Of a stretch of 64,000 bases of DNA, positions 27,369 to 58,969 are shown piece by piece. The stretch is from contig JAGWWT010000001.1 in assembly GCA_018970245.1 (NCBI GenBank), forward strand, positions 17,548 to 81,547, read 5' to 3'. This DNA is from Patescibacteria group bacterium (lineage in GTDB: Bacteria; Patescibacteriota; Minisyncoccia; Phycocordibacterales; PALSA-1337). The notes under the pieces are model-generated. The model was not told where the DNA came from. It did no database searches and was given only the letters and a program-made list of their open reading frames with translations. Each line of letters starts with the position of its first letter. Position 1 is the stretch's first letter. The translations under genes and the position numbers were made by a program.

Positions 27369-27447
27369 GGAGATTTAAGATTTAAGAATTAAGATTTAAG
27401 GAGCCGGGCAGCAGGCTTAAATCGTAGATCCTAAGTCGTAGATCTTC
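27369..27447 (+). repeat. Heptamer-repeat (AAGATTT) hairpin containing no gene
   Basis: 32-nt arms 27369-27400 and 27416-27447; pairing includes several G-U wobbles and periodic mismatches. Confidence 0.85.
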
Positions 27448-28394: not shown

Positions 28395-29089
28395 AGCCTG
28401 ACCTCGAAAGCCTAGCCAAAAGCTTGGGCGTCCGGTTCAAGGACATCTCCATCCTACGGACAGCCTGCACCCACCGATCCTACCTGAACGAGAACAAGGG
28501 GGCCGGTTTCGAGCACAACGAGCGGCTGGAATTCCTAGGCGATGCCGTCCTAGAGCTGGTCGTCACCAGCTTCCTCTTCAAGAAGTATCCAAAGAAGGCC
28601 GAAGGCGAGCTGACCTCGCTGAGGTCGGCCATTGTGAACACGGTCAGCCTGACCAGAGTGGCCGAGCATATCGGCCTCAATGATTTCCTGCTCCTATCGA
28701 AGGGTGAGCTCCGGGACACCGGCCGCGCTCGCTCGATCATTCTGGCCAACGCCGTCGAAGCCGTGATAGGCGCCATCTACCTCGACCAGGGATATGAGAC
28801 CGCCGGCGGCTTCATATCAGACAAGATCCTCGGGTCTATAGACATCGACGAGATCGCCGCCAAGAAGCTGTGGCTCGACGCCAAGAGCCGATTCCAAGAG
28901 CAGGCGCAGGACAAAGCTGGCAAGACCCCGAGCTACCGCACTCTCCGTGAAGAGGGCCCAGACCATAACAAGCAGTTCACTCTAGGCGTGTTCCTCGGGG
29001 ACGTCCAGGTAGCCTCGGGCACCGGGGCATCGAAACAGGAGGCAGAGCAAAAGGCCGCAGAGAAGGCGCTGGAAGCCAAGGGGTGGTAG
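28391..29089 (+). CDS. rnc: Ribonuclease III
   Basis: HNERLEFLGDAVL signature and dsRBD. Confidence 0.98.
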   Translation: MKPDLESLAKSLGVRFKDISILRTACTHRSYLNENKGAGFEHNERLEFLGDAVLELVVTSFLFKKYPKKAEGELTSLRSAIVNTVSLTRVAEHIGLNDFLLLSKGELRDTGRARSIILANAVEAVIGAIYLDQGYETAGGFISDKILGSIDIDEIAAKKLWLDAKSRFQEQAQDKAGKTPSYRTLREEGPDHNKQFTLGVFLGDVQVASGTGASKQEAEQKAAEKALEAKGW

Positions 29090-29474: not shown

Positions 29475-29526
29475 ATCTCCAATCTCTAATATCTAATCTC
29501 TAATATCTAATCTCTAATCTCCAATC
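29475..29526. repeat. Heptamer tandem repeat (AATCTCT/AATATCT)
   Basis: About 7 units immediately upstream of smc. Confidence 0.9.
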
Positions 29527-39032: not shown

Positions 39033-39473
39033 ATGCTCATCGGAGAACACCGCCATACTATCGATGACAAGAATCGCCTGTCGCTTCCCGCCAAGTTCCG
39101 AAAGGAAATGGGACGCGCAGTTGTGATCACGCCGGGACTCGACTCCTGTCTCTTCGTCTTTTCGGCGAAGGAATGGGAGAAGATCTCCGGACGCTTGTCA
39201 GCGGGAGATTCTTCGATACTGCAGGCGGACAACCGCGGCTTCAACCGCTTCCTCCTCGGAGGGGCCGTTGAAGCTCCGGTTGATGCAGTCGGCCGCATGC
39301 TTCTACCGGAACATCTGCGCGAGCACGCCAGGCTCAAGACGAATGTCGTCTTCCTAGGCGTCGTGGACCGCGCCGAGATCTGGGACGAAGAGACTTGGAG
39401 CGCCTATCGGAAGGGTGTGACGGACAACGCCAACGCCCTCGCCGAGAAGCTAGGCCAGGCGGGCGTGAAGTGA
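39033..39473 (+). CDS. mraZ: Transcriptional regulator MraZ
   Basis: IDDKNRL.LP.KFR, D..GR.LLP, EIWD. Confidence 0.97.
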   Translation: MLIGEHRHTIDDKNRLSLPAKFRKEMGRAVVITPGLDSCLFVFSAKEWEKISGRLSAGDSSILQADNRGFNRFLLGGAVEAPVDAVGRMLLPEHLREHARLKTNVVFLGVVDRAEIWDEETWSAYRKGVTDNANALAEKLGQAGVK

Positions 39474-39536
39474 GGAGTATGGAGAAAGGAGAAAGGAGTA
39501 AGGAGAAAGGAGTAAGGAGCGACGAGAAAGGAGATT
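39474..39536 (+). repeat. Heptamer repeat (GGAGAAA/GGAGTAA) forming the RsmH N-terminus
   Basis: About 9 units, translated as MEKGERSKEKGVRSDEKGD. Confidence 0.85.
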
Positions 39537-40462: not shown

Positions 40463-40803
40463 CAAGAACGATGACAGCAGCATACGATCTCGCCAACGAA
40501 CATCGCAGGCAGATAGTCTGCAGCCTTTTGATCGCGAGCTCATGCCTAGCGGCCATTTATGTGCTGAACATCTATTCGGTCGTCTCTAAGACCGTCGCCC
40601 TCCAGAGGACGGAGAAGCAGATCGCATCGCTCTCGCAGGGCGTCGAGGACCTAGATTCGCAGTATCTGGCCCTTTCGAGCAAGATCACGCCGGATTCCCT
40701 GAAGGAATACGGCTTGTCGCAGGTGCAGGTCTCGGAATACATCTCCCGCTCCTCCACGCTCGGCGTAAGCCAGCTGGCCGTCTCTGGCGGACATGAACTC
40801 TGA
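40459..40803 (+). CDS. Probable FtsL-like cell division protein
   Basis: TM plus coiled coil, between rsmH and ftsI. Confidence 0.6.
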   Translation: MTRTMTAAYDLANEHRRQIVCSLLIASSCLAAIYVLNIYSVVSKTVALQRTEKQIASLSQGVEDLDSQYLALSSKITPDSLKEYGLSQVQVSEYISRSSTLGVSQLAVSGGHEL

Positions 40804-42535
40804 TCAACGCCTGCGTTCGCGGCTGATCTTCGGCCTATTCATCATGGGCGCAGCCGTTTTGGCCGTCTCCCTGTATTGGACGCAGATCGTCCAAGGCTCG
40901 CAATATCAGGCCAAGGCCGACCAGCAATACGACAAGCCCAATGCCGCGCAATTCGACCGCGGCACCATATATTTCGAGTCGCGGGACGGCACGAGAGTAG
41001 CGGCGGCGACCGTAGGCAGCGGGTATCTCGTTTTCATCAATCCATCGCAGCTCGCCGACCCGGCCGAAGCGTATTCGGCCCTCTCGCAATTCATATCCGT
41101 CGACCGCGCCTCATTCATGGCCAAAGCCACGAAGCCGAACGATCATTATGAGGTAGTCGCCGACCGGATCGCTACCGACGCCGCCCAATCCATACGCGGG
41201 CTCCAGATCGCCGGCCTGAACGTCGCTCCAGAGACATGGCGCTCATACCCGGGCGGCACGCTGGCAGCTCATGTCCTCGGCCTCACAGGCGAGGATGGCA
41301 GCTCCACGAACGTCATCGGCCGCTACGGCCTCGAGCGGTCTTACGAGGATGTCCTGGGGCGAGCTTCCGCTGGTTCGAGCGCTAACGTCTTCGCCCAGCT
41401 CTTCGGCGGCATCGGCACGGCGCTAGGGGGAGCATCATCGCAGAGCGGCGATATCGTCACGACCATAGACCCTACCGCTCAAAAATACTTGGAGCAGACC
41501 CTCAGCCAGACCGAGTCAGTATGGCATTCTGACGAGATCGGCGGTATAGTGATGGACCCGACCACTGGCGAGATCGTAGCCATGTCGTCGCTGCCGAGCT
41601 TCGACCCGAACGACACCTCATCGATAAAGGACGTATCGGTCTTCTCCGATCCGCTCGTCGAGCACGTATATGAGATGGGATCGATCATGAAGCCGCTCAC
41701 CATGGCTATGGCGCTCGATTCCGGGGCAGAGAAGCCCGACTCCTTATATGACGATACGGGCACGATGGTATTGAACGGCATGAAGATAGCCAACTACGAC
41801 GGCCGCGCGCGCGGGATCATCCCGATGCAGCAGATCCTATCGCAGTCGCTGAACATAGGCGCCGCCACTATAGCCTTGAAGACCGAGAAGGATATCGGCA
41901 CCGGGACCATGTTCAAGTATTTCAGCGATTACGGCCTCGGCGAGAAGTCCGGCATCGATGAGCCGAGCGAGGCCTCCGGCCTCATCTCCAACATCAAGCC
42001 TGGGCCTAACCTGCGCGATATTAACATCGCCACCGCGTCCTTCGGGCAAGGCATCGCCGTCTCGCCCATAGAGATGGTCAGGGCTCTTTCGGTCATAGCT
42101 AATGGCGGTTATCTCGTGACGCCGCATGTCGTGGATGAGATCGACCATACCGACGGTACGGTGCAGAGGATCTTGCCCCAAAAAGAAGGCCCAGTCATCT
42201 CCAAGACCGCCGCTGAAGACGTCACCTTGATGCTCATAAAGGTGGTCGATGACACGATGGCCAAGGTCCATAAGGACATGCATTGGCAGCATTATTCGAT
42301 CGCCGCCAAGACCGGCACGGCCCAGATCCCGGACCATGTCCATGGAGGCTATTATCCGAACCGCTATCTGCACTCCTTCTTCGGTTTTTTCCCGGCATAT
42401 GATCCGCGGTTCATAGTTTTCTTGTACCAGGTCTATCCCAAAGGCGCCGAATACGCCTCGGAGACTCTGACGGATCCCTTTAGCCAGATGGCGAAGTTTC
42501 TGATAAATTACTACAACATAGCTCCGGACAGGTAA
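40793..42535 (+). CDS. ftsI: Peptidoglycan transpeptidase FtsI (PBP3)
   Basis: RG.I, YEMGSIMK, SLNIG, SFGQG, KTGTAQ; dcw context. Confidence 0.92.
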   Translation: MNSDQRLRSRLIFGLFIMGAAVLAVSLYWTQIVQGSQYQAKADQQYDKPNAAQFDRGTIYFESRDGTRVAAATVGSGYLVFINPSQLADPAEAYSALSQFISVDRASFMAKATKPNDHYEVVADRIATDAAQSIRGLQIAGLNVAPETWRSYPGGTLAAHVLGLTGEDGSSTNVIGRYGLERSYEDVLGRASAGSSANVFAQLFGGIGTALGGASSQSGDIVTTIDPTAQKYLEQTLSQTESVWHSDEIGGIVMDPTTGEIVAMSSLPSFDPNDTSSIKDVSVFSDPLVEHVYEMGSIMKPLTMAMALDSGAEKPDSLYDDTGTMVLNGMKIANYDGRARGIIPMQQILSQSLNIGAATIALKTEKDIGTGTMFKYFSDYGLGEKSGIDEPSEASGLISNIKPGPNLRDINIATASFGQGIAVSPIEMVRALSVIANGGYLVTPHVVDEIDHTDGTVQRILPQKEGPVISKTAAEDVTLMLIKVVDDTMAKVHKDMHWQHYSIAAKTGTAQIPDHVHGGYYPNRYLHSFFGFFPAYDPRFIVFLYQVYPKGAEYASETLTDPFSQMAKFLINYYNIAPDR

Positions 42536-42542
42536 TAAAATT

Positions 42543-42991
42543 GCAGAATTAGGAATTAAGAATTAAGATTTATGGATGGGTCTACTAGACGCTCCAAGAA
42601 GCAAGATCAGATCATTCACAGACCTCAAATCCTGGAAGGAAGGCCATGGATTAGTAGTCTTGACCTATAGGATAACGGCAAAATTCCCGCGTTCTGAGCT
42701 TTATTCTCTCACTGATCAGATGCGTAGAGCTGCTTCTTCAGTAACCGCAAATATAGCGGAAGGGTTCGGGAGGCGAAGCTATAAAGAAAAGATCCAATTC
42801 TACTATCATTCACAGGGTTCTTTGACTGAATTGAAGGATCATATTTTGACAGCTAAGGATATCGGATATTTGAATGAGGATGATTTAAGATCCTTGGCAG
42901 AATCGGCCAATATGACTCACAGATTGCTTCAAGGACTCATAACGAAATCCAAGTCCTTCTTAAATCTTAAATCCTGATTCTTAATTCCTGC
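42543..42991 (+). other. Inverted-repeat-bounded cassette carrying a four-helix-bundle gene
   Basis: Arms 42551-42572 and 42968-42989 form a 22-bp stem (one G-U, one mismatch). Confidence 0.75.
42576..42977 (+). CDS. Four-helix-bundle protein (23S rRNA IVP family)
   Basis: F.DL..W, FP..E.Y.L..QMRRAA.S...NIAEG.GR, GS..E. Confidence 0.92.
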   Translation: MGLLDAPRSKIRSFTDLKSWKEGHGLVVLTYRITAKFPRSELYSLTDQMRRAASSVTANIAEGFGRRSYKEKIQFYYHSQGSLTELKDHILTAKDIGYLNEDDLRSLAESANMTHRLLQGLITKSKSFLNLKS

Positions 42992-42998
42992 TCAGCCC

Positions 42999-44303
42999 AT
43001 GCAACCCATCAAGAAAGCCATAATAAGCATCCTCACACTGGAGTCCAGGCTCATACTGCGCAAATACAGGCCATTCATCGTGGCCGTGACCGGCAGCGTA
43101 GGCAAGACTTCGACCAAGGACGCGATCTTCAGCGTCTTCAAGGGCCAAGGCGGCTATGTGCGGAAGAGCGAGAAGAACATGAACAGCGACATCGGCTTGC
43201 CGCTCACGATCATAGGCGTGCCGAATGCTTGGCGCAGCCCTTCGGCTTGGCTGAAGAACATAAGGGCCGGCCTGAGGCTCATCCTGTCCAAGAATGAATA
43301 CCCGGATTGCCTGATCTTGGAGGTGGGTGCGGATCACCCGGGAGACATCAGCAGGACGGTGAGATGGCTCAAGCCGGACATCGCCGTGATCACCAAAGTC
43401 TCGCAGACGCCGGTCCACGTAGAGTTCTTCAAGTCGCCTGAGGACGTCTTCAAGGAGAAAGCATCGCTCGCCGAAGGCGTCAAAGCCGGAGGGACAGTGA
43501 TCCTCTTTGCCGACGACGCGAAGGTCATGTCGATCGCCGATATGGTCAAAGCCAAGCAGTCGAGGATAGCGACCTTCGGGACAGCCGAAGGGTCGACGGT
43601 CAAGGGTTCTGGCTTCGAGACGGCATACGACGAGCAAGGCAGGCCGAAGGGGATCGCCTTCGGCATGCAGATGGGGTCGACGAGCCTGCGCGCATCGGTG
43701 GACGGCATACTGGGGCGCACATTCATGTACCCTCTCCTCACAGCGGCCGCAGCGGCTCAAGCGAGGGGTATCGATGCGGAAAAGATCGCCGAAGGCATCA
43801 ATTCCTATGAGGCGCCCAGGGGCAGGATGAACATCATAGAGGGCGCGAATGGCTCGATGATTATAGACGACACCTACAATTCCTCGCCCGATGCAGCCGA
43901 AGCGGCCCTAGAGACGATCAAATCGCTACGATGCGCCGGCTCGAAGATCGCGGTTCTCGGAGACATGATGGAGCTTGGCAAATTCTCGGCAGAGGAGCAC
44001 AGGAAGATCGGCGCGGTCGCAGCCTCATCGGTCGATCGGCTAGTGACAGTGGGGCCTAGGTCGCGTGCGACGGCGGAAGAAGCGGGGAAGAAAGGCCTCT
44101 CTCAGGCGATGATCGCGTCGTTCGATTCCGCAGACGAGGCCGCAAGCTTTCTCAAGCCGCTCGTAGGCCCTGGCGATACGATCCTGGTCAAAGGATCGCA
44201 ATCAGTGCGCATGGAGCGGGTCGTGAAAGCCCTGATGCGCTCGCCTGAAGACGCTGAGAAGCTGCTTGTCCGGCAGGAGCCGGAATGGCTGAGCAGGGCC
44301 TGA
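42999..44303 (+). CDS. murF: UDP-MurNAc-tripeptide--D-Ala-D-Ala ligase
   Basis: VTGSVGKTSTK, N.N..IGLPLT, IDDTYNSSP, LGDMMELG, VKGS. Confidence 0.92.
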   Translation: MQPIKKAIISILTLESRLILRKYRPFIVAVTGSVGKTSTKDAIFSVFKGQGGYVRKSEKNMNSDIGLPLTIIGVPNAWRSPSAWLKNIRAGLRLILSKNEYPDCLILEVGADHPGDISRTVRWLKPDIAVITKVSQTPVHVEFFKSPEDVFKEKASLAEGVKAGGTVILFADDAKVMSIADMVKAKQSRIATFGTAEGSTVKGSGFETAYDEQGRPKGIAFGMQMGSTSLRASVDGILGRTFMYPLLTAAAAAQARGIDAEKIAEGINSYEAPRGRMNIIEGANGSMIIDDTYNSSPDAAEAALETIKSLRCAGSKIAVLGDMMELGKFSAEEHRKIGAVAASSVDRLVTVGPRSRATAEEAGKKGLSQAMIASFDSADEAASFLKPLVGPGDTILVKGSQSVRMERVVKALMRSPEDAEKLLVRQEPEWLSRA

Positions 44304-48128: not shown

Positions 48129-49127
48129 ATGAACAGAAATGAGGCAAAAAACCGCTGTAATGGCCCGCAAACAAAGACGTCTTACGGATTTATGAGAGCC
48201 CGCACCGCATCAGTCCTAGGGAGCGTGATCCTGGGGGCGGCTTTATTCGCTTTTCTGCCGGCTGGCAGAGCCGATGCCCAGATCTTCCCGTTCCCATTCG
48301 GAGGAGGTTCGCACTCCAGCCCTCTCGGCTTCTTGCCAAATCCAGGCCGCCTGCCGAATCCTCTCAGCATATTGCCGAATCCATTCGGATCGCCGATAGG
48401 CCACGATTACGGCTACGGCAACAACCACGGCTATAACAACAATTACAACTACAATTATAACTACAACTATAATTCCAACCGCGGACCTTATCCGCCTCCG
48501 GCATATCACCCGCCAGAGCCGCGCCCAAATCCGCAACCATATCCGTATCCGATCCCACACCCCCAGCCGAATCCTCGCCCATATCCATATCCGTCGCCGT
48601 ATCCTTCGCCGGTGCCATATCCGGTGCCATATCCTGTCCCGCAGCCGGTCTACTACCCACAACCTCAACCTGTGGTCCAGCCGATCTATTATCCTCAGCC
48701 TCAGCCTGTGGTCCAGCCCATAGTCTATCAACAGCCGGTCTATGTGCCCCCGCCGCAGCCAGTCTACGTACAACAGCCGCAGCCGATCGTCATAAGCCAG
48801 CCGCAACCCGTCTACGTCCAGCAGCAGCCGGTCATCGTGAGCCAGCCGTATCAGTCATACCCCCAGTCGCTCTCCATATCCTGCTATCCGGATTCGACGA
48901 CCGTTTACAACAACCGATTCGTGACATGGACAGCCGATGTCACCGGCGGCGTCACGCCCTACGCTTATTCTTGGAGCGGGACAGAGTACACCGGCAATAT
49001 GAGCTCGAGCCAGATATACCAGTACTACCAGTATCTCGGATACAAGACTATGAATGTGACCGTCCGCTCTGCCGACGGCCAGACGGCATTCGCCAGCTGC
49101 GGCTCGGTGAACGTGATAGATCCATAG
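48129..49127 (+). CDS. Secreted Pro/Tyr/Gln-rich protein with a C-terminal PKD/Ig-like domain
   Basis: Signal peptide; NY, PYP and PQP repeats; VTW.A...GG..PY.YSWSG. Confidence 0.75.
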   Translation: MNRNEAKNRCNGPQTKTSYGFMRARTASVLGSVILGAALFAFLPAGRADAQIFPFPFGGGSHSSPLGFLPNPGRLPNPLSILPNPFGSPIGHDYGYGNNHGYNNNYNYNYNYNYNSNRGPYPPPAYHPPEPRPNPQPYPYPIPHPQPNPRPYPYPSPYPSPVPYPVPYPVPQPVYYPQPQPVVQPIYYPQPQPVVQPIVYQQPVYVPPPQPVYVQQPQPIVISQPQPVYVQQQPVIVSQPYQSYPQSLSISCYPDSTTVYNNRFVTWTADVTGGVTPYAYSWSGTEYTGNMSSSQIYQYYQYLGYKTMNVTVRSADGQTAFASCGSVNVIDP

Positions 49128-49148: not shown

Positions 49149-51374
49149 ATGGCTGTACCCGATAGCTTTTTGAAGCCCTACGATCCTGGGGCTACCGAAG
49201 ACCGCATATACTCGCTCTGGGAGAAGAGCGGCTTTTTCGATCCTGACGATCTGCCTGAAAGGAACAAGAATGGCGAGCCTTTTTCCATAGTCCTGCCCCC
49301 GCCTAACGTGACAGGCACCCTCCATATGGGCCATGCCGCCATGCTCGCTATCGAGGACATAATGATCAGATACAAGCGGATGCGCGGATACAGGACATTG
49401 TGGCTTCCTGGCACGGATCACGCAGCCATCGCCACGCAATCCAAGGTCGAGAAAGAGATAGTCAAGAAGGAGGGCAAGAATCGCCACGACCTAGGACGAG
49501 AGGAGTTCCTGAAGCGCGTTGGCGAGTTCGCCAAGAATAGCCACGACACGATAGTCAATCAGGTCCGCAAGATGGGCGCTTCAGTCGACTGGTCGCGGGA
49601 AGCATTCACTTTGGATGAGAAGCGCTCCTTCGCTGTCCGGACCGCCTTCAAGCGCATGTACGATATGGGCCTCATTTACCGCGGCAACCGCATCGTCAAT
49701 TGGGATCCGAAGGGGCAGACCACTATCTCCGACGATGAGATCGTCTATAAGGAAGAGAAGACGAAGTTCTATTATTTCAAATACGGCCCGTTCGTCATCG
49801 GCACAGCCAGGCCTGAGACGAAGTTCGGCGACAAGTACGTCGTCATGCATCCGGACGATGCGCGCTACGCCGCTTACAAGCATGGCCAGAAGATCGACCT
49901 TGAATGGATAAACGGCCCTATCACGGCGACGGTCATCAAGGATGCTTCTATCGACATGGAGTTCGGGACCGGCGTCATGACGATCACGCCTTGGCACAGC
50001 GCTGTGGATTTCGACATAGCCGAACGGCATAAGCTCGACAAAGAGCAGATCATCGATACATTCGGCAAGCTCCTGCCCGTAGCGGGCGAGTTCGCCGGCA
50101 TGAAGATCGCCGAAGCCAGGCCCAAGATCGTGGAGAAGCTCCGCGCTAAAGGCCTCGTAGAAAAGGAAGAAGACTACGTCCACAACATCGCTACCGCTGA
50201 GCGCACTGGCGGCCTAGTGGAGCCTCAGATCATGAAGCAATGGTTCGTCGGGGTGAATACGAGGTTCGAGATCCCGGGCGCCAAAAAAGGCTCGAGCAGC
50301 AAGACTCTCAAAGAGATTATGAAGGAAGCTGTCGAGTCCGGAAAGATAAAGATCATTCCTGACAGATTCGAGAAGATCTATTATCACTGGATAGACAATC
50401 TCCGCGATTGGTGCATCTCGCGCCAGATCTGGTATGGGCACAGAGTGCCGGTGTGGTACAGGAGGGCAGAGATTGGAGATGAGAGATTAGATATTAGAGA
50501 TGAGAGATCAGAGACTAGAGAGGAGGTGTATGTGGGCGTGGAGGCGCCGGAAGGGGAAGGTTGGAGACAAGATGAAGACACTCTCGATACCTGGTTCTCG
50601 TCGGGCCTCTGGACATTCTCGACCCTAGGCTGGCCGGAAGAGACCGAAGACCTCAAGCTCTACCACCCGACCGACGTCCTCGAGACGGGCTATGACATCC
50701 TCTTTTTCTGGGTGGCCAGGATGATCCTCATGACCGGATGCCTTCTCGGTGATGTACCGTTCAAGACAGTCTATCTCCATGGCCTCGTCCGCGATGGGAA
50801 GGGCCGCAAGATGTCCAAATCGCTGGACAACATCATCGATCCTCTGGACATGATCAAGAAGTACGGCGGCGACGCCACGCGCCTGTCGCTCATCATCGGC
50901 ACCGGACCAGGGAACGATCTCAAGCTCTCCGAGGACAAAGTCCGCGGCTACAAGAATTTCGCTAATAAGCTCTGGAACATCACTCGTTTCGTCCTGGAAT
51001 CAGCCGGCGGCGAGGCCATCGACAAAGCCTTCGAAGGCTACACGGACGCAGACGCCAAGCTCCGCAAGGCCAGGCGTGCGTTCCTGGAAGAGATCACCCG
51101 CGAAATGGAGGAGTTCAAATTCTACCTGGTAGGCGAAAAGCTATATCACTATGCCTGGCATGAATTCGCGGACAAGATCCTAGAGGATAGCAAGAAGATA
51201 TTCAGGGAGGGGGATGAAAAGGCCCAGAGGTCACGCCGCCAGCTTTTGCTCCATACGCTGGACGATATCTTGCGGGCTCTGCATCCATTCATGCCATTCG
51301 TGACTGAAGAGATCTGGAGGGCTATGGATCGGGATCAGGGCATGCTCATGGTCCAGGAATGGCCGATCGCCTAA
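49149..51374 (+). CDS. valS: Valine--tRNA ligase (short form)
   Basis: PPPNVTG.LHMGH, DHAAIATQ, DWCISRQ.W.GH, LDTWFSS, KMSKS. Confidence 0.97.
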   Translation: MAVPDSFLKPYDPGATEDRIYSLWEKSGFFDPDDLPERNKNGEPFSIVLPPPNVTGTLHMGHAAMLAIEDIMIRYKRMRGYRTLWLPGTDHAAIATQSKVEKEIVKKEGKNRHDLGREEFLKRVGEFAKNSHDTIVNQVRKMGASVDWSREAFTLDEKRSFAVRTAFKRMYDMGLIYRGNRIVNWDPKGQTTISDDEIVYKEEKTKFYYFKYGPFVIGTARPETKFGDKYVVMHPDDARYAAYKHGQKIDLEWINGPITATVIKDASIDMEFGTGVMTITPWHSAVDFDIAERHKLDKEQIIDTFGKLLPVAGEFAGMKIAEARPKIVEKLRAKGLVEKEEDYVHNIATAERTGGLVEPQIMKQWFVGVNTRFEIPGAKKGSSSKTLKEIMKEAVESGKIKIIPDRFEKIYYHWIDNLRDWCISRQIWYGHRVPVWYRRAEIGDERLDIRDERSETREEVYVGVEAPEGEGWRQDEDTLDTWFSSGLWTFSTLGWPEETEDLKLYHPTDVLETGYDILFFWVARMILMTGCLLGDVPFKTVYLHGLVRDGKGRKMSKSLDNIIDPLDMIKKYGGDATRLSLIIGTGPGNDLKLSEDKVRGYKNFANKLWNITRFVLESAGGEAIDKAFEGYTDADAKLRKARRAFLEEITREMEEFKFYLVGEKLYHYAWHEFADKILEDSKKIFREGDEKAQRSRRQLLLHTLDDILRALHPFMPFVTEEIWRAMDRDQGMLMVQEWPIA
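50466..50520 (+). repeat. Heptamer repeat (AGAGATT family) inserted in frame in valS
   Basis: GCAGAGATTGGAGATGAGAGATTAGATATTAGAGATGAGAGATCAGAGACTAGAG encodes AEIGDERLDIRDERSETR. Confidence 0.85.
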
Positions 51375-55261: not shown

Positions 55262-55825
55262 ATGGATTCATACAAGAACAAGATCATATATTTCTACAGG
55301 CGCACGAAGCGCATGCCCAGCTATGCGGAGATAATGTCTCTGCTCGGCTTCAAGTCCAAGAATGCCGTCTACAAATTGGTGAACAAGCTCGTGAGCGAGG
55401 GTGCTTTGGATAAAGATTCGCAGGGACGGCTAGTACCGAACCGCCTTTTCGGAGAGGTGCCTGTCCTCGGATTGGTCGAGGCGGGATTTCCCACCGCTGC
55501 CGAGGAGGAGCTCGTAGATACTATGAGCCTCGACGAATATATGATCGAGAACAAAGAGGCCACCTATATGCTCGAGGTAAAGGGCGATTCTATGATCGAG
55601 GCCGGCATCCAGGAAGGCGACCTTGTCATCGCTGAAAGAGGCAAGGAGCCCAAGCCTGGCGATATCGTCATTGCCGAGGTCGACGGCGGATGGACGATGA
55701 AATATTTCCGTAAGACCGGCAACCAAGTGTGGCTGGAGCCTGCGAACAAGGCGTACAAGCCTATCTATCCCGAAGCCGATCTCAAGATCGCCGCCGTCGT
55801 GAAGGGGGTGATCAGGAAATATTAA
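55262..55825 (+). CDS. lexA: LexA-family repressor (S24 peptidase)
   Basis: wHTH MPS..EI...LGFKS, cleavage site AG(F)P, V.GDSM, catalytic K in TMK. Confidence 0.88.
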   Translation: MDSYKNKIIYFYRRTKRMPSYAEIMSLLGFKSKNAVYKLVNKLVSEGALDKDSQGRLVPNRLFGEVPVLGLVEAGFPTAAEEELVDTMSLDEYMIENKEATYMLEVKGDSMIEAGIQEGDLVIAERGKEPKPGDIVIAEVDGGWTMKYFRKTGNQVWLEPANKAYKPIYPEADLKIAAVVKGVIRKY

Positions 55826-55857
55826 ATATCAAAGATTAAAAATTAAAAACAACAACC

Positions 55858-57882: not shown

Positions 57883-57922
57883 TAGATATTAGAGATTAGA
57901 GACTAGAGATTAGAGACTAGAG
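57883..57922. repeat. Heptamer repeat (AGAGATT/AGAGACT) overlapping the recR stop
   Basis: TAGATATTAGAGATTAGAGACTAGAGATTAGAGACTAGAG. Confidence 0.85.
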
Positions 57923-58518: not shown

Positions 58519-58541
58519 GGGAGTAGAGCGGAGAGTAGAGA

Positions 58542-58969
58542 GCAGAGATTAGAGATTAGAGATTAGATTAGAGAGGGAATTGGTTTTTGTGATCAGGCCC
58601 TGCAGCAGGCGATGGGCGCTGCTGATCCGATCACTGGCCTCATTGTAGTCTTTTTCTGAGATGTATGAAATATCCCTCGAAAGGATGAGCTGGTTCTCGA
58701 GCTCTGACATCGAGCCGCGAGCTTGGTAATAGAAATGCGCTTTGTCCTTGTATGTCCTGCGTCCGAAGCCCTCGGCGATATTGGACGTGATCGATACGGC
58801 TGACCTTCTCATCTGGCCTGCAAGGCCAAAGAGCTCTTCCTTCGGGAATTTCCTCGTCAAATCATACACGCCCATTACAAGGCGGTGTGAGACCTGCCAA
58901 GCCTGCAAATCTGTGAATTTGACGATGCCACCCATATATGCCCTCTAATATCTAATCTCTAATCTCTGC
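58542..58969 (-). other. Inverted-repeat-bounded cassette carrying a four-helix-bundle gene
   Basis: Perfect 19-bp IR GCAGAGATTAGAGATTAGA (58542-58560 / 58951-58969), extending to 26 bp with one mismatch. Confidence 0.8.
58549..58935 (-). CDS. Four-helix-bundle protein (23S rRNA IVP family)
   Basis: FTDL.AWQ, FP.EE.F.L..QMRRSAVSITSNIAEGFGR, ARGS..E. Confidence 0.93.
   Translation of the reverse strand: MGGIVKFTDLQAWQVSHRLVMGVYDLTRKFPKEELFGLAGQMRRSAVSITSNIAEGFGRRTYKDKAHFYYQARGSMSELENQLILSRDISYISEKDYNEASDRISSAHRLLQGLITKTNSLSNLISNL

Follow-up and report, generated by a model that had tools for sequence, protein, structure and literature searches.

Members of the IVP family were first found inside rRNA intervening sequences. 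We know of two solved structures for this large family (PF05635) and of no established function. The intervening sequence in helix 45 of the Coxiella burnetii 23S rRNA has a 28-bp stem in which a variable number of heptamer repeats immediately precedes the S23p start codon. RNase III cleaves this element, and the ORF itself is reported to be decaying and probably untranslated (available text of PMC4990558). A homologue from Bacteroides thetaiotaomicron, BT_0352, appears in expression tables, and 11 of the 20 supplementary files of that transcript atlas contain no processing data for it (PMC10994844). PF05635 has also been linked to Avd (available part of PMC10053308), whose pentamer binds an RNA stem-loop and takes flipped-out RNA bases into crevices between its protomers (available part of bioRxiv 10.1101/2023.10.23.563531).

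Heptamer arrays are a reported yet unexplained feature of many bacterial genomes. In Xanthomonas and Nostoc they mostly comprise four units and directly follow stop codons, a single Xanthomonas genome having 70 convergent pairs (PMC4692102), and further examples have been described from Beggiatoaceae (PMC4679880) and in PMC2700814. No associated protein is named for them in the accessible portions of PMC4692102 and PMC4679880: that of PMC4692102 mentions neither S23 nor XCC0516, and that of PMC4679880 contains none of the terms four helix, S23 and intervening.

The window, by which we mean the whole 64,000-nucleotide stretch of DNA analysed, contains an IVP gene enclosed by heptamer arrays between ftsI and murF (Table 1). 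The original prediction described an IVP ORF between these two genes, arms of 7-nt units pairing as a 22-bp stem with one G-U and one mismatch, a stop codon within the right arm, GCAG and CTGC at the ends of the unit, and an RNase III gene in the same window. Profile matches confirm the genes, and the arms and ends are as described. The left arm begins 8 nt past the ftsI stop codon and ends just ahead of the IVP start codon, while the right arm overlaps the last codons of the IVP gene together with its stop (42975-42977) and ends 7 nt ahead of the murF start. The unit is bounded by GCAG (42543) and CTGC (42988-42991). G+C content is 41.5% in the IVP gene and 40% in the cassette, against 58-59% in ftsI and murF; the top NCBIfam match of the murF-type gene, TIGR01143, is under its cut-off.

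Table 1. Features of the ftsI-murF cassette and related features of the window.
Feature	Position	Strand	Basis or remark
ftsI-type penicillin-binding protein gene, upstream host gene	40793..42535	+	PF00905 + PF03717
Left arm, purine-rich heptamer array	42543..42572	+	Period 7, 4.0 copies (42545-42572)
IVP / four-helix-bundle gene, 133 aa	42576..42977	+	PF05635, TIGR02436, structure model
Right arm, reverse-complement heptamer array	42957..42991	+	Period 7, 4.4 copies (42957-42987)
murF-type Mur ligase gene, downstream host gene	42999..44303	+	PF08245 + PF02875
RNase III domain of rnc, host enzyme outside the cassette	28442..28834	+	PF14622, 137.5 bits
Second cassette, IVP gene (~58549-58935) between inverted AGAGATT-type arrays (different heptamer)	58531..58967	-	
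Gene-less hairpin, same repeat family as the arms of the ftsI-murF cassette	27371..27444	.	

The 22-nt arms (42551-42572 and 42968-42989) are 91% complementary, the non-Watson-Crick positions in this register being one U-G and one A-C. As these two exchange roles on the opposite strand, the register favours neither strand. The period of 7 in both arrays also allows pairing in registers offset by 7 nt. Folding of 42530-43010 closes a long stem (z = -2.36, with 1 of 100 shuffles equally good), and the stem score of the cassette is 19 compared with a maximum of 11 over 20 shuffles. In the folding model the stem spans 22-27 bp, with -28.7 kcal/mol on the sense strand and -23.8 kcal/mol on the antisense strand. 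In 42000-43600 nothing matched Rfam at gathering level, and in 42300-43200 the plus strand matched neither a promoter nor a terminator.

The 133-aa protein scores 117 bits against PF05635 (cut-off 33.8) and 109 bits against TIGR02436 (cut-off 24), and is a member of the 23S_rRNA_IVP family. Its structure model consists of four helices (pLDDT 94), for which the best Foldseek match is 2GSC (E 4e-8), followed by 2RLD and then Avd. By analogy with 2GSC as described in the available text of PMC4990558, it is probably a pentamer. The protein has a pI of 9.7, and values above 8.5 were found for 134 of 165 IVP proteins. IVP proteins are under purifying selection, with a median dN/dS of 0.055 in 15 usable independent pairs, 14 more being saturated at synonymous sites.

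Against the Avd profile NF033474 the 133-aa protein scores 19.4 bits, the cut-off being 80. The cassette contains no Pfam domain besides PF05635, and no mobility enzyme or catalytic domain was found in it. Y1 transposase (PF01797) was not found in the 98% complete genome, in a search that left out the DDE families, and neither was PF13366. No reverse transcriptase (RT) lies beside the cassette; the sole RT found is on another contig and has its own bAvd gene. At that locus, a perfect 6.6-copy TGGCGGC array (L260 1231-1276; G000:C96:22235-22280) lies between the RT gene and the oppositely oriented bAvd gene, where it lies at the 5' end of the Avd gene. The RT-bAvd locus is likely a DGR.

The genome encodes seven PF05635 genes, six of them in cassettes other than the one between ftsI and murF. 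Inverted arrays bracket all seven, and no two share a repeat word; one right arm is cut by a contig end. Genome-wide there are 73 period-7 arrays, against 1-13 for periods 4, 5, 8, 10, 11 and 13. Of the 73, ten serve as IVP arms, 13 belong to gene-less hairpins, and the other 50 are without a partner arm within 200 nt. Next to stop codons the arrays keep a fixed polarity. Single arrays of other families occur in the window at the gene junctions 39473-39534, 29475-29526, 55817-55847 and 57883-57922, with no partner within 200 nt.

Arrays are also found inside genes. At 50468-50521, an AGAGATT-type array lies within a class I tRNA-synthetase ORF, which we take to be valS, and the reading frame is kept open; in-gene arrays on contigs C87, C88 and C96 nearly all have the purine-rich form on the sense strand. 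Several gene-less hairpins on contigs C36, C72, C96, C53 and C34 are built from GGTATTT-type arrays, and no IVP gene carrying the GGTATTT word was found in this assembly. Two further arrays (C54:588-664 and C85:260-326) join the GGTATTT type to the AGAGATT family. The window also contains a 332-aa ORF (48129-49127) with a hydrophobic N-terminus and long Pro/Gln/Tyr and Asn-Tyr repeats.

Beyond this genome, 198 loci were gathered, with one partial match left out. After removal of 9 duplicates, 8 loci at contig edges and 2 of odd length, 172 non-redundant IVP loci and 7 below-cut-off hits remained. Inverted heptamer arms, with a stem score of at least 12, flank 152 of the 172 IVP genes across many phyla, and 142 of the 172 beat all 20 shuffles. 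As a control, direct repeats reached the same score at 27 of the 172. None of the 7 below-cut-off Avd-like hits beat its shuffles, the three that were scanned being bAvd. In four genomes of cultured strains, all 19 over-cut-off IVP genes have stems scoring at least 15, two of them with equal or stronger direct repeats, and the IVP genes within such a genome each have their own repeat word. Flavobacterium frigidimaris and Maribacter spongiicola carry 7 and 5 IVP genes, respectively. Only four viral loci were obtained.

Cassette and upstream gene are co-directional at 121 of 142 callable loci; this suggests that transcription plays a role and counts against the mobile-cassette reading. The left arm begins -15 to +30 nt from the upstream stop codon in 89 of 109 cases, in part because operon spacers are short. 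Loci L003 and L059 have related cassettes between one and the same pair of genes but in opposing directions, both flanks being reversed relative to the IVP gene, which shows that one cassette is inverted at an orthologous site. Two Flavobacterium cassettes (L261, L266) apparently have reverse polarity, with the pyrimidine-rich arm upstream. At three loci (L047, L062, L172) the IVP gene is situated between adjacent tRNA genes, Lys-Leu twice and Val-Met once. Gene-less heptamer hairpins in two other genomes (L241-L249 and L258, in G030 and G023) have loops that contain other, nested REP-like palindromes, and no over-cut-off IVP was found in either genome.

One possibility raised in the original prediction is an arm pair that functions as an RNA stem. 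Selection for an RNA helix should make G-U pairs exceed A-C mismatches on the transcribed strand, and this bias, whose absence the original prediction named among its refuting observations, is absent: the arms of the 152 loci contain 105 G-U and 134 A-C, and the 83 loci that are co-directional on both sides contain 48 and 83. The more stable duplex is formed by the sense strand in 70 loci and by the antisense strand in 79. The controls behave differently, with 103 G-U and 50 A-C in 210 short hairpins that follow stop codons of this genome (Fisher p = 7e-6 for the arms against these hairpins) and 13 G-U and 2 A-C in 64 tRNA acceptor stems. The comparison is tempered by the tandem units, which permit shifted registers and so relax selection on single pairs, and by the ftsI-murF locus itself, which folds better on the sense strand. 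Covariation between the arms, the other expected mark of such a stem, was observed as compensatory change: own arms pair better than swapped arms in 52 of 67 AAGT-type loci, as well as at one orthologous site in four genomes. In the repeat family of the ftsI-murF cassette the difference is not significant (26 against 20 of 47). Covariation without G-U may reflect copying from arm to arm in DNA, as this would yield the same pattern.

Junctions were compared in the best 29 of the 58 non-self genomes with a murF match. None of these 29 murF loci has an IVP match. In 28 of them ftsI adjoins murF, with a gap of at most 60 nt in 21 of the 28 and of 235 nt at the largest, compared with 463 nt here. 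The cassette, missing from all 28 relatives that show both genes, is an insert. Other palindromic elements occupy the ftsI-murF junction of two relatives (L010, 1265-1500; L011, 1370-1500), and across L010, L011, L028 and L016 the junctions carry either other palindromic inserts or heptamer remnants, which makes this junction a repeatedly used landing site.

Metagenome assemblies provide a closer comparison. In one contig of run X6 (depth 2.7), 42539 is followed by 6 letters and then by 42999, which leaves a 10-nt gap. It stands beside a filled contig covering 42506-43028 (depth 7.7), and both lead into the contig that starts from 42999 (depth 10.8), a geometry that two close variants, with an empty and a filled allele, would give. 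The empty allele is represented by a single low-depth contig in one run, matched at 85% likeness, and as it retains a few left-arm letters it may be the product of loss and not a never-occupied site. No target-site duplication was seen with this lone allele, the other relatives being too distant for such a comparison (MurF 50-63% identical). Misassembly of the cassette is unlikely because single contigs bridge it in all four metagenome runs, some of which may be the source sample. A joint in run X4 from 42572 to 42957 (depth 2, side 28), with 26 other letters between, resembles a gene-less hairpin; its loop is absent from the genome and the main contig is unbroken, and it was set aside as probably belonging to another locus or organism.

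The word of the left arm, which lies outside the ORF, tracks the tree of the protein core, with 28 label changes against 71 in shuffled data (0 of 200 shuffles), where the labels are our own patterns set after seeing the sequences the tree is a quick one, and the sample consists of two query-centred clades. Word similarity rises from 0.05 at 30-40% protein identity to 0.57 at 80-90%, and one clade keeps an AAGT-type word over Bacteroidota, Patescibacteria and other phyla. This tracking may indicate recognition of the word by the protein, or plain co-inheritance through linkage.

Over-cut-off IVP genes are present in 12 of 60 relatives, and the repeat family of the ftsI-murF cassette in 11 of the 60. 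Four of those 11 have an over-cut-off IVP, compared with 8 among the remaining 49, and the IVP genes in the four have other arm words or no clear arms. That each repeat family requires a cognate IVP in the same genome is not upheld by these counts. One relative, whose assembly is incomplete, has 30 matches to the repeat pattern and no IVP that we could find, which means that, in incomplete assemblies at least, arrays persist where the cognate protein is missing. A link between Xanthomonas-type repeats and IVP arms was not established, the pattern matching in 1 of 251 gammaproteobacterial genomes.

With some reserve, we consider the ftsI-murF cassette a likely selfish mobile element that combines DNA-level arms with a predicted repeat-binding protein and is moved by an outside enzyme. 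Against this reading count the failure to find a mobility enzyme in the cassette or a Y1 transposase in the genome, the low number of viral loci, the arrays that persist without a cognate IVP and the prevailing co-directionality with the upstream gene. In such a mechanism, an IVP gene between inverted heptamer arrays would have been inserted just past the ftsI stop codon, and the arms would act as DNA ends in excision, inversion and copying. Slippage and arm-to-arm copying may keep the arms complementary. The protomer ring may bind the repeat units, by analogy with the Avd crevices that take flipped-out bases, and the gene-less hairpins and single arrays may be decayed cassettes or may have been seeded by cassettes. 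Movement would require a host or trans-acting enzyme, since the cassette itself has no catalytic domain that could be found. In the transcript, a hairpin of about 25 bp would hide the IVP start and might be cut by RNase III. We treat this hairpin as a by-product here, and it would explain why the same cassette can be tolerated within rRNA.

The original prediction interpreted the locus as the stem-plus-IVP architecture of an rRNA intervening sequence moved into an mRNA. The architecture itself holds, as do the insertion and the complementary arms; an arm pair selected as an RNA helix is not supported by the data. A better fit is the alternative offered in the same prediction, in which the cassette is mobile and its protein recognises the repeats. 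In an mRNA intervening sequence the arms would be selected as an RNA helix, and RNase III cleavage would release or silence the IVP message and split the operon transcript, as in 23S rRNA. Such processing would suit the 22-27 bp stem with its stronger sense fold, the rnc gene, the prevailing co-directionality with the upstream gene and the three cassettes between tRNA genes, which lie in processed precursors, and it has a precedent in the Coxiella element, cut by RNase III within a heptamer-built stem (available text of PMC4990558). We nevertheless regard it as unlikely: over 152 loci the arms have neither the G-U excess of the controls nor an energy advantage on the sense strand, 50 of the 73 arrays of this genome are partnerless, one cassette is inverted, and several have a -10-like box before the IVP start, as read by eye. 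Further, a cut mRNA is not rejoined, so excision would presumably break the message of an essential operon.

Host regulation by IVP rings, which would bind single-stranded arrays set behind stop codons or ahead of start codons and so adjust translation, termination or decay, and would autoregulate their own gene through its flanking arms, is in our estimation quite improbable. The strong purifying selection on IVP would be expected of such a network, as would the fixed polarity in which arrays abut stop codons, shared with Xanthomonas and Nostoc (available text of PMC4692102), and it is consistent with the binding of RNA bases between Avd protomers (available part of bioRxiv 10.1101/2023.10.23.563531) and with the entry of BT_0352 in expression tables (available files of PMC10994844). 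Against it stand the patchy occurrence of IVP among relatives, the unrelated insertion sites and the arrays that exist without a cognate IVP, and no regulatory role of heptamer arrays was found in the accessible portion of PMC4692102. Passive accumulation, with arrays arising by slippage at junctions and flanking IVP genes merely as small acquired genes, could account for the many single arrays and for those that grow inside genes and beside the Avd gene of the RT locus. It is largely refuted, and we rate it as very improbable, given that the arms are inverted and not direct, that they occur at 152 of 172 IVP genes and not at the Avd-like controls, that paralogues sharing a genome differ in their words, and that the word follows the protein across phyla.

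Extending the mobile-cassette reading, we raise as a tentative and rather doubtful possibility that IVP genes, together with their arms, make up the autonomous part of a class of mobile elements not yet described. Each clade would read its own word and spread gene-less copies, giving rise to the heptamer excess of bacterial genomes; rRNA intervening sequences would be those copies that ended up in rRNA, Avd would be a domesticated relative, and the copying would possibly be done by a borrowed RT.

Among known elements, REP/REPIN-RAYT systems and MITEs such as Correia and ERIC resemble the cassettes in having a gene between inverted repeats, dispersed gene-less copies and several gene-repeat families per genome. 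The cassette differs in having no HUH or DDE transposase and in its arms, which are tandem heptamers of variable length and not fixed palindromes. Presence and absence at orthologous sites is common to the cassettes and to IS, MITE and REP-RAYT elements. No encoded or cognate transposase was found here among the Pfam matches of the cassette or, for PF01797, in the genome. With the Avd of diversity-generating retroelements (4DWL, 8UB7) the IVP protein shares a four-helix fold and a basic character, whereas the cassette lacks an RT and template or variable repeats, and Avd-like genes lack inverted arms.

In the Coxiella 23S element, as in the cassettes, a long terminal stem with heptamer repeats encloses a PF05635 ORF in its loop. 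The cassettes differ in lying between protein genes or tRNAs and in having an IVP under purifying selection, while RNase III excision has been demonstrated for the Coxiella element (available text of PMC4990558). The ftsI-murF cassette has the build of an ORF-bearing intervening sequence and is not a member of that class, because it lies outside rRNA and is without an RNA-helix signature. The arrays of Xanthomonas, Nostoc and Beggiatoaceae have in common with the cassette arms 7-nt units, about four copies, a purine-rich form after stop codons and many convergent pairs (available portions of PMC4692102 and PMC4679880). Mobile cassettes of this kind would link the IVP family to the heptamer arrays of many bacterial genomes. 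The tie between clade and word gives a candidate ligand with matched controls, own against foreign word, in cultured, non-pathogenic hosts that have several cassettes each, and the negative G-U result shifts the focus from RNA processing to DNA binding and recombination. A full-text literature search, covering few subscription journals, returned nothing that ties IVP genes outside rRNA to inverted heptamer arms. The heptamer-built stem is already known from the Coxiella 23S element, and heptamer arrays from Xanthomonas and Nostoc.
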